From: Candidatus Hydrothermales bacterium
GTDB taxonomy: Bacteria > Hydrothermota > Hydrothermia > Hydrothermales > JAJRUZ01
DNA: 17,455 nt
Assembly: GCA_039630575.1 (NCBI GenBank)
Contig: JBCNUW010000028.1
Location: forward strand, 1 to 17,455
Direction of reading: 5' to 3'
Shown here: positions 3,001 through 6,000 of the stretch, piece after piece
Layout of the letters: the number at the start of each line of letters is the position of its first letter
How positions within the stretch are numbered: the first letter of the stretch is position 1
Program-made: the position numbers

Positions 3001-6000
3001 AACGAAACACTGAGGGAAAGATACGGAATTGAAGAAAATGAAGGTGTTGTTGTTGTGGATGTGGAGACCAACTCTCCTGCTTACGAATCAGGTATAAGAG
3101 AGGGTGATCTTATCGTTAAGGTTGAAGACATGAAAATAAAAGATTTAAATGATTTTAGGAAAGCAAAAGAGAAATATGGCTCACAAAAAGTCATATTGTT
3201 TACAGTGATAAGAGACGGTGTTAAATCAATACTGGCAATAAAAAGATAATTTGGCAAAAAAAAATTTAAAAAAGCAAATAGAGGAATGGGTTTGGGCTTT
3301 TATCGTAGTCTTTTTTGTAATTAGACCCTTTTTTCTCCAAGCCTATAGGATTCCCTCTGGTTCAATGGAAGATACTTTATTACCTGGAGATTTTCTTTTT
3401 GTTTTTAAACCTATTTTCGGTTTTGAACTACCTTACACACAGATAAAATTCTTTCAATTTATTGAACCAAAAAGAGGAGATATAGTTGTATTTAGGTATC
3501 CAGTTGATCCATCAAAGGATTTTGTGAAAAGGGTTATAGGATTGGAGGGTGACACAGTTATGATAAAAGATAAAAGAGTTTATATAAACGGAAAATTACT
3601 TATTGAGGAGTACGCGATTCATAAAGATGAAAGGATAATAAATTCACCCTATAACATGGAAAGCAAATCATTTGCTGAATATTTTCAGAAGGAATGGGAG
3701 AACAGAGCCTTTTTAAGCGATATAAATATAAGAGATAACTTTGGTCCAGTTGTAGTTCCACCTAATTCCTATTTTGTCTTGGGTGATAACAGAGATTTTT
3801 CATCTGATTCAAGGTTTTTTGGTCCTGTTCCCAAAAAATTTCTTAAAGGTATTCCTTTTTTTATCTATTTTTCTTGGGACGGAAGTGTACCATTTTATAA
3901 TTTTTTAAAAAGTATAAGGTGGGATAGAATTTTCCAATTACCCTTTTTATGGAGAAAGAATTATGAGATGCAAAGTATGTAAAGAAAAAGCCTGTATAAA
4001 AATAAAAAGACAAAGTCTTTCATTATGTCCAACTCATTTTCTTGAAAGATTTGAATTAGAGTCACAGAGATTAATCAAAAAGTATAAGATGTTTACATAC
4101 AGTGATAAGGTTGCTGTAGCTGTTTCGGGTGGCAAAGATTCATTATCACTTTTGTATCTACTTAATAAACTTGGATACAATATCCTTGGAATTCATATAA
4201 ATTTAGGTATATTTAAAGAAAACTATTCGAATAAATCAGAAATTTTTGTTAGAAATTTCAGAGATAAATTTAACATCCCTATTTTGATTTATAACGTAAA
4301 AGAAAATCAAGAAAAAGGGATAGAGGACATTGTAAAAGAAAGGTGGAAAGATAAACCTTGTGCTGTTTGTGGAATGGTGAAAAGATATCTGATGAATATT
4401 CTTGCTTTAAAGAATAACTGTACTGTCCTTGCAACAGGACATAACCTTGATGATGAATCCTCAAGATTGTTCGGTAATATAATTTATTGGCAGGAAGAAC
4501 ATTTAGAACATCAGGAATTGACTTTGCCTGAAGAAAATGGCCTTTTAAAAAAAGTTAAACCTTTTTTTCTCTTTACCGAGAAAGAAATAGCTCTATATGC
4601 TATTTTAAACAGAATAGATTATATAAAAGATGAATGCCCCTATTCTGTTGGTGCTAAAACTTTAAAATATAAAGGAATTTTAAATTTACTTGAAAACGAT
4701 TCACCTGGCACAAAGTATAGATTCCTGACAGGGTTTTATAATTTTAAAAAAAAGATAGATAAAAAGGGTTTAAAAACCTTTAAAGGAACTAATAAATGTA
4801 TTCAATGTGGCATGCCCACAAAGAGAGAGATTTGCACCTTCTGCACTACCTTTGAAAAACATCCATTTAAGATTTTCCTAAATGTCAATAAATAGGGAAA
4901 AAATCTTTGTTGTAATTCCTGTTTATAATGAAAAAGAATCGCTTTATAAGGTTATTTCTGAAACAAAGGATATCTTACCTGAATCAAAAATAATTGTTGT
5001 AGATGATGGTTCAGATCCACCTGTTAGATTGATCAAGAATCCAAAACTTATCTTACTAAGACATGAGAATAACATGGGATATGGGGCAAGTCTAATGAGT
5101 GGAATAGAGTTTTCTATCTCTGATGGTGCTGAGATAATAATAACAATAGATGCGGACGGGCAACATTTTCCAAAAAGAATTCCAGATTTTCTTGATAAGA
5201 TTAAAAATAACGATTTTGTTTCAGGTTCAAGATATCATCCTCTTTCTCTTAAGCTTTCAGAACCTCCAAGTGATAGAAGGATCATAAATATAATAATTAC
5301 TGAAATCTTAAAAGAACTAACAGGTTTTAATATAACAGACTCTTTTTGTGGTTTTAAATGTTTTAAAAGTTATTTTTTTGAGAATTTCATATCAGAGGAA
5401 AAAGGCTATGGTTTTCCTCTTGAGCTATGGTATTATGCCTATAAATTTAAATTTAAATTTGAAGAAGTTCCTTGTGAACTATACTATCCTATAAAGAAGG
5501 AATTCCCTGGAAATCTTAGAGATCAAGAAAAAAGGCTTGAGTATTATTTAAAAATTCTTGAAAAAAAATTTAAGGCGAAACTTGTTGAAAAGGGATTTAA
5601 AATGCTAAAAAATTATTTGAGAAAGGATCAACATGAGTAAAACCTTAATTGCTTTTGGGGCACATCCAGATGATGTTGAGTTATCCATTGGTGGTCTTGT
5701 CTCAAAACTTTCAAAGGCAGGATATAAAGTAATAATATGTGATTTAACAGATGGTGAACCTACTCCTTTTGGTGATCCAGAGACAAGAAAAAAGGAAGCA
5801 AAAGAGGCAGCAAAAATTTTAGGTGTAGAAAGAGTTACTCTTGATTTACCTAATAGGTTCTTAATGGATAGTGTTGAATCAAGAATTAAGGTAGCTGAGA
5901 TAATAAGGGAGTATAAACCAGAAGTTATTCTTACCCATCATGGGGATGATCAACATCCCGATCATATAGAGACAAGAAAAATTGTTCAAGCTGCAAGATT

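Follow-up and report, generated by a model that had tools for sequence, protein, structure and literature searches.

Absence of LepA from the Order Hydrothermales and the Probable Repeated Loss of lepA in Its Phylum

Introduction

The GTPase LepA is nearly universal in Bacteria: one survey recorded it in 190 of 191 genomes (Margus 2007, PMC1780047), and a more recent one in 99.37% of the genomes outside the CPR and 91.5% of those within it (Amikura 2025, PMC12641178). In Escherichia coli, it has been described as a non-essential GTPase that helps the 30S head through its final maturation step and whose deletion is nearly silent and barely slows growth; the 30S particles formed without it are reported to be short of S3, S10, and S14, most of them reaching a near-mature state, and the deletion is synthetic with rsgA and dksA (PMC4245954, PMC12787274). 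Why so mild a knockout phenotype should go with conservation in nearly all bacteria has long been a puzzle; natural losers have been so few that the question could not be approached by comparative genomics until now.

The lack of other translation and transcription factors has its own precedents. Bacteria without RSH enzymes are represented by the PVC superphylum and by endosymbionts (Atkinson 2011, PMC3153485), those without Gre factors by cyanobacteria and some smaller free-living taxa (PMC7026648), and those without the signal recognition particle (SRP) by Leptospira (PMC10066597). Pairs of EF-G paralogues with complementary conservation are also known, i.e., spdEFG1/spdEFG2, Borrelia EF-G1/EF-G2, and mtEFG1/2 (PMC3150367, PMC4342817).

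The genome under study belongs to the order Hydrothermales (1,885,610 bases in 95 contigs, 94.7% complete). Its phylum resembles the surveyed bacteria in that the LepA-positive families carry an ordinary LepA (TIGR01393) and the LepA-negative members hold IF2, EF-Tu, and EF-G, the trio that the surveys call universal (PMC1780047, PMC12641178); it differs in that 68% of the sampled genomes of this free-living phylum lack LepA. Gene loss in itself is a known event; what is new is that it should occur so widely and so often within one free-living phylum. The name WOR-3 does not occur in the text or supplement of the 2025 survey (PMC12641178), LepA is not mentioned in the main text of two papers on the phylum (PMC12542636, PMC12285271), and no published report of LepA or SRP loss in the phylum was found in the literature within reach, which excludes most subscription journals, where reviews may list exceptions. 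According to the same survey, lepA is listed as a bac120 marker, and the phylum is therefore systematically short of marker data (PMC12641178).

The lepB Locus

The window, i.e., the whole stretch of 17,455 nucleotides that was analysed, contains the gene to which the survey's finding of a LepA loss had been attached, a lepB without its usual partner. The relevant features are the following:

1741..3249, + strand: degP/htrA serine protease gene, in place upstream of lepB (Trypsin_2 and PDZ domains)
3247..3253, + strand: degP stop codon, one base, and lepB start codon (TAA-T-TTG; read from the sequence)
3251..3982, + strand: lepB, signal peptidase I, 243 aa, with a TTG start (open reading frame; Pfam Peptidase_S26, E 1.2e-44)
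3963..4895, + strand: TtuA-like tRNA thiolase gene, overlapping the end of lepB (ATP_bind_3 over the cut-off, TtuA_LIM_N slightly under it)

The identity of lepB was confirmed: its product matches Peptidase_S26 over residues 14-206 (152.6 bits in a Pfam search), has a hydrophobic N-terminus, as read from the sequence, and thus bears the marks of signal peptidase I (LepB, S26A). It is 42-46% identical to the LepB encoded directly after lepA in five families (f26, f29, f32, f37, and f42). In the sequence, no lepA remnant is found between the end of degP (3249) and the start of lepB (3251), where there is zero intergenic room. The degP-lepB order is common to five of the six metagenome loci retrieved with this LepB, and the order of lepB and the TtuA-like gene is kept in three (L384, L385, and L388). 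That this place serves as an anchor only, as had been cautioned, is correct: in the other genomes of the class, lepA adjoins genes other than lepB, whereas outside the class the lepA-lepB pair persists in the same five families.

The remainder of the window contains two tRNA genes (1501-1575 and 1588-1659); an open reading frame at 1464-1814 spans both and was discarded as spurious. A glycosyltransferase gene, a PIG-L deacetylase gene, and a gene of unknown function encoding 375 aa (4882-7455) occur in an order conserved in three metagenome loci, a set that may resemble that of bacillithiol-type synthesis. Further downstream, an open reading frame of 563 aa with no Pfam match (8922-10613) precedes a gene resembling the beta subunit of succinyl-CoA ligase, beside which an alpha subunit is lacking. 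A sigma-70 factor of 412 aa (12709-13947) has its regions 2 and 4 widely separated by a long segment with no Pfam match at E 1e-4, and a type I restriction methyltransferase gene (hsdM) lies between two small nucleotidyltransferase genes (14877-17214).

Distribution of LepA

The translational GTPases of this genome, as obtained with a G-domain profile and a motif scan, are IF2, EF-Tu, and two EF-Gs, and nothing else, exactly the set that had been proposed. A profile HMM built from the lepA loci of 30 relatives (in which 3 of the 30 rows proved to be the wrong ORF) and tblastn matched only the IF2, EF-Tu, and EF-G paralogues.

LepA was then scored in 251 genomes of the phylum, a sample of a larger group whose assemblies are 57-100% complete, by means of the LepA_C domain (PF06421) and a full-length profile. 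It is present in 80 of them: LepA_C is over the cut-off in 77, and three more (G073, G136, and G100), in which a fragment lies at the end of a contig, were recovered by the full-length profile; three LepA_C hits below the cut-off were discarded as noise, and the full-length model TIGR01393 exceeds its cut-off in 75 genomes. The distribution is all-or-none by family, LepA being found in 80 of the 82 genomes of 16 families and in none of the 169 genomes of the other 26. Both profiles leave the order, which consists of families f1 and f2, without LepA (0 of 11 genomes), so that the reported absence stands. Its description as order-wide, by contrast, was too narrow, as 171 of the 251 phylum genomes have no LepA. 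Within the class, for which a frequency of 15 in 27 had been given, the larger sample contains LepA in 46 of 64 genomes; the order remains negative, and LepA is usual outside four negative families (f1, 0/6; f2, 0/5; f6, 0/4; f10, 0/2).

The scores are bimodal, with E values below 1e-90 for LepA and above 1e-35 where only EF-G-type hits occur. No order genome reaches the TIGR01393 threshold of 533.9 bits; the best matches (E 1e-29 to 1e-25) come from EF-G, and the two EF-Gs of this genome score 117 and 177 bits. A candidate of 509 aa in G149 that might have been a LepA lacking its C-terminal domain turned out to be an EFG II cut short by a gap of N.

The incompleteness of metagenome-assembled genomes, raised as a caveat by the survey, was checked in several ways. 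The probability that all 11 order genomes miss lepA through incompleteness is about 3e-13, assuming independent misses, and six single-contig genomes (G149, G187, G201, G228, G229, and G243; 89-97% complete) are also negative. As controls, LepA_C was found in 10 of 10 bacterial genomes and, in a different phylum (that of a Krumholzibacteriia record), in 59 of the 61 genomes searched; the short gene ybeY was recovered by profile in 80 of 80 phylum genomes, 49 of them LepA-negative, and RpoB in 79 of the 80 genomes of a set that was almost the same. As tblastn with the E. coli sequence missed the YbeY of this genome, which the profile recovered, an absence was accepted only where a profile search supported it. 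LepA is truly absent from the order, which possesses IF2, EF-Tu, and two EF-Gs and no (p)ppGpp synthetase, and this absence survives the controls for incompleteness.

Other Missing Factors

The RelA/SpoT synthetase domain (PF04607) occurs in 16 of 251 phylum, 8 of 64 class, and 0 of 11 order genomes, in agreement with the rarity already noticed; a long Rel is confined to f10, f12, and a single genome of f6, and tblastn with the largest ORF of the RelA/SpoT loci of 14 relatives gave nothing in this genome. The phylum thus shares with the RSH-less PVC bacteria and endosymbionts the lack of a synthetase domain (235 of 251 genomes), but it is a further phylum outside PVC, and the absence is independent of LepA (PMC3153485). 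BipA (TIGR01394, E 1e-90) was detected in 25 of 251 phylum genomes and, as claimed, is missing from the class (0 of 64); the Thermus and Thermotoga controls are negative too. The lack of RF3, previously seen in this genome only, extends to all of the five genomes tested out of 251 (G000, the present one, G083, G006, G149, and G007), none of which has RF3_C over the cut-off.

Gre factors did not turn out to be as uniformly absent from the class as had been reported: the GreA_GreB domain is over the cut-off in 3 of 64 class genomes, and it is absent from the present genome and from nine others of the order. The remaining order genome, G180, encodes a 638-aa protein with both Gre domains and a long N-terminal part with no Pfam match, on a 2.8-kb contig whose GC content (0.318) fits its genus; retention, transfer, and mis-binning are all compatible with it. 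The loss of Gre is class-level with exceptions. In the phylum as a whole, 119 of 251 genomes have the domain, mostly in long proteins of 500-800 aa that carry the Gre domains C-terminally (L143-L146 and L261). The near absence from the class (61 of 64 genomes with no Gre over the cut-off) recalls the Gre-less cyanobacteria and smaller free-living taxa, whereas the long form differs from a stand-alone GreA (PMC7026648).

Two further factors are rare. RsgA was found in 11 of 80 phylum genomes and in 0 of 7 order genomes, the best 37 candidates at most being scored in each genome, and RNase III in 0 of 7 class genomes versus 5 of 8 others. The absences of BipA, RelA/SpoT, RF3, and Gre are a class- or phylum-wide background that does not track LepA, and each has described precedents (PMC3153485, PMC7026648, PMC1780047). 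They do not form an order-specific package with the loss of LepA, which affects 26 of 42 families, while RelA/SpoT and BipA are rare regardless of LepA. The survey had overlooked the absence of Ffh/FtsY, RsgA, and RNase III, as well as the specialisation of the two EF-Gs.

Signal Recognition Particle

The M domain of Ffh was found in none of 28 class genomes, whereas 39 of 43 other genomes and 14 of 14 controls are positive; it is also missing from all nine genomes of a second clade comprising seven families (f13, f19, f23, f26, f27, f28, and f34). The Ffh and FtsY of E. coli and the Ffh of four relatives match nothing in the present genome, and the GTPase domain common to Ffh and FtsY gave no strong match in the four class genomes tested. 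A search for 4.5S RNA was positive in one of five genomes, being a weak test, as it missed G149, which has Ffh. YidC was detected in five of five genomes, and YidC, SecY, and SecA are all present in this genome. The SRP is thus probably missing from the whole class and from the second clade, as the outcome of two separate losses. The situation resembles that of Leptospira in the lack of Ffh and the presence here of YidC, SecY, and SecA, and differs from it in extending over a whole class and a clade of seven families (PMC10066597).

One strong SRP-type GTPase hit, in G015 (f23), was rejected as FlhF, since it belongs to a flagellar run flhA-flhF-flhG-fliA (L390); the same family has BipA and a LepA that clusters outside the phylum. 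The LepA-losing lineages and the SRP-less class may be regarded as natural experiments on the purpose of "universal" factors.

The Two EF-Gs

The tip of domain IV of EF-G is required for fast translocation. Each of the seven order genomes tested gave exactly two matches to domain IV of EF-G; a third EF-G, canonical where read, exists in some LepA-positive families (f5, f7, f8, f11, and one genome of f12). The two genes of this genome are:

Contig C12, L001:283-2346: str-operon EF-G, G motifs kept, domain IV loops degenerate
Contig C8, L004:256-2325: EFG II, domain IV loops intact, no catalytic His

The str-operon protein has intact G motifs (TIGR00484, 709 bits), but both domain IV loops are replaced, so that it lacks the conserved domain IV of EFG I; its domain IV is 27% identical to that of E. 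coli, versus 50% for the EFG II copy. The same loss of the loop motifs was observed in 12 of 12 class sequences examined, in f18 (4/4), and in f19. The second protein is assigned to EFG II (NF009381, 802 bits versus a cut-off of 583), as it shows Gly16, Leu25, the loss of RGITI, and a conserved domain IV, which are the reported marks of that group (PMC3150367); its motifs are GHSGCGKTTL, RKITI, QSGGRGQYG, and DGKYHPVDSS. In all eight class sequences seen, the switch II His of this copy is replaced by Phe or Tyr. For comparison, a His-to-Tyr replacement is reported to abolish almost completely the GTPase activity of mycobacterial EF-G1, and GTPase and translocation activity have been reported for Thermus EF-G2 (bioRxiv 10.64898/2026.05.25.727771).

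As judged from these motifs, each of the two EF-Gs seems to be specialised. The splits described so far pair spdEFG1 with spdEFG2, and the domain IV of EFG I and that of EFG II are equally conserved (PMC3150367, PMC4342817); in the order, the str-operon EF-G is devoid of domain IV loops, and the sole EF-G with intact loops is the His-less EFG II. It can be suggested, quite tentatively, that in this free-living order, which would manage without LepA, BipA, RF3, RsgA, RNase III, (p)ppGpp, and SRP, elongation might depend on the His-less EFG II, the str-operon EF-G being reduced to a putative role in recycling, like the EF-Gs of the spdEFG2/mtEFG2 kind, which act with RRF and do not translocate. 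If true, this would represent a new division of labour between EF-Gs, and translocation might even proceed normally with hardly any GTP hydrolysis, or with none. The class, one member of which has been cultured, seems to dispense with SRP and to use two specialised EF-Gs. The EF-G split occurs both with and without LepA; therefore, it is not the compensation for the loss of LepA.

History and Causes of the LepA Loss

A species tree was constructed with FastTree on RpoB, RpoC, S7, and S12 of 79 genomes, rooted with five outgroups. It requires 15 losses of LepA, or 13 if f23 regained the gene, a count that is approximate, several deep nodes being weak. The LepA trees, run with 62 or 22 outgroups, agree with the RpoB/RpoC tree in the clades of the class (100/100), f18+f32 (99/95), and f37+f42 (100/100). 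A clean deletion is visible in G008 (f19): its 495-kb contig reads folK-panC-lepB, with panC and lepB abutting, where two f26 genomes (G060 and G022) have folK-panC-lepA-lepB. G045 keeps lepB-grpE-dnaK-dnaJ with lepA gone. No lepA remnant was found in nine loci from LepA-negative genomes, and a comparison of the gene order around tsaE revealed no flanks common to f10 and f6. As a separate observation, G076 (f33) has a tandem duplicate of lepB (L333:6665-8925; frames of 290 and 423 aa) where sister families carry lepA-lepB.

Vertical descent with repeated deletion fits these data best. Very probably, the ancestor of the phylum had a LepA adjoining lepB, which would have been inherited vertically and removed completely in some 13-15 lineages, among them the one ancestral to the order. 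With close LepA-positive sisters at hand, so many independent losses would allow co-evolving changes in rRNA, proteins, and genes to be searched for directly.

As for the cause, no dedicated substitute would have taken the place of LepA. In E. coli terms, LepA would only accelerate a step that is completed without it, and selection on speed may be weak in the phylum. We slightly favour the idea that the late step in the 30S head finishes unaided or with the remaining factors (Era, RbfA, RimM, RimP, KsgA, and YbeY are candidates), so that, under weak selection, LepA would drift out. This genome keeps Era, KsgA, HflX, ObgE, EF-P, HPF, SmpB, tmRNA, RRF, and YbeY; RbfA, RimP, and RimM gave weak tblastn matches in the expected operons. 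The same small-genome lineage would have dropped RelA/SpoT, BipA, RsgA, and probably RF3 independently of LepA, over most of the phylum, and Gre, RNase III, and SRP at the level of the class. The sole cultured member of the phylum, sy37 (AP038914), which belongs to the class, is reported to double in 10 h (PMC12285271); we infer that slow growth and weak selection lie behind the loss. Taken as a whole, ancestral LepA, repeated loss, and relaxed selection constitute a reasonably probable explanation.

Other drivers fared worse. Genomes as small as 1.4-1.7 Mb in f3, f7, and f8 retain LepA, as do 91.5% of CPR bacteria, so that small size alone is not the explanation. A heme-copper oxidase is present in 7 of 31 LepA-positive and 2 of 49 LepA-negative genomes (two of the present genus); respiration was rejected as a driver, the enzyme being skewed toward LepA-positive genomes and yet neither necessary nor sufficient. 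Temperature was rejected on a charged-versus-polar proxy from RpoB/RpoC (0.139 versus 0.132, P 0.24; 16 positive versus 26 negative families, which are not independent). BipA is no stand-in for LepA, as 22 of its 25 carriers have LepA too, and none of the possible partners RsgA, YbeY, RNase III, Ffh, RSH, Gre, and the EF-G change matches the LepA pattern. No tested factor co-varies with LepA; therefore, the cause of its dispensability, i.e., relaxed selection, is only inferred.

The main rival, which we regard as rather improbable, is a hidden permissive or compensating change in the 30S head (in the head of the 16S rRNA, in the late-binding proteins uS3, uS10, and uS14, or in some other factor), acquired either early or in each losing lineage. 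The occurrence of 13-15 losses in one phylum, versus 99.37% retention in non-CPR RefSeq genomes (PMC12641178), would point to a shared permissive background, and RsgA, whose deletion in E. coli is synthetic with that of lepA, is likewise rare here; plain dispensability does not fully account for the fact that both are missing. On the other hand, RsgA occurs in 5 of 31 LepA-positive and 6 of 49 LepA-negative genomes, YbeY is ubiquitous in the same set, and RNase III, Ffh, and the change in EF-G domain IV cut across LepA status. A scan of the columns of S7 and S12 over 27-29 families found nothing that tracks LepA; the scan of the head proteins, with five or six families a side, is underpowered, and its top columns are likely phylogenetic noise.

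It is much less likely that LepA was lost once, in an ancestor, and regained horizontally by the 16 positive families. The LepA of f23 does group with an Endomicrobium sequence (95/80) and lies away from lepB, and the clade uniting all other phylum groups has a support of just 90/81; for f23 alone, the tree suggests a regain without establishing it. However, an AU test is compatible with f23 inside the phylum clade (p 0.086), the other LepA groups mirror the species tree, the lepA-lepB adjacency is found in five distant families, and the G008 deletion lies in a gene order common to the LepA-positive f26. Least credible of all is an artefact, with lepA lost from incomplete bins or too diverged, split, or interrupted to be detected: the completeness range, the YbeY missed by tblastn, and a full-length search that scored the best five candidates per genome would allow for it, but two profiles agree, the LepA_C search scored every candidate, the scores are bimodal, the G-domain search of this genome lists all translational GTPases, none of them LepA, the G149 candidate is a truncated EFG II, and the joint miss of 11 order genomes has the minute probability given above.

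Beside the deletion history, the arrangement of the ribosomal genes deserves mention. In this genome, the rRNA was assembled as fragments only; for the cultured member of the class, a single 23S gene beside two 16S genes is reported (PMC12285271), a count suggestive of rRNA genes that are not linked. A count of T-arm motifs gave 115 versus 52 in shuffled sequences, an excess of doubtful meaning, as up to 44 of them are tRNA genes. The S10-spc-alpha cluster of this genome is in four pieces (contigs C12, C5, C14, and C28), with breaks after rpmC, rplR, and secY, and rpmC is followed by mreB-like genes; the run of G048 also ends at rpmC and that of G083 at rplB, and other families of the class keep the S10-spc-alpha run.
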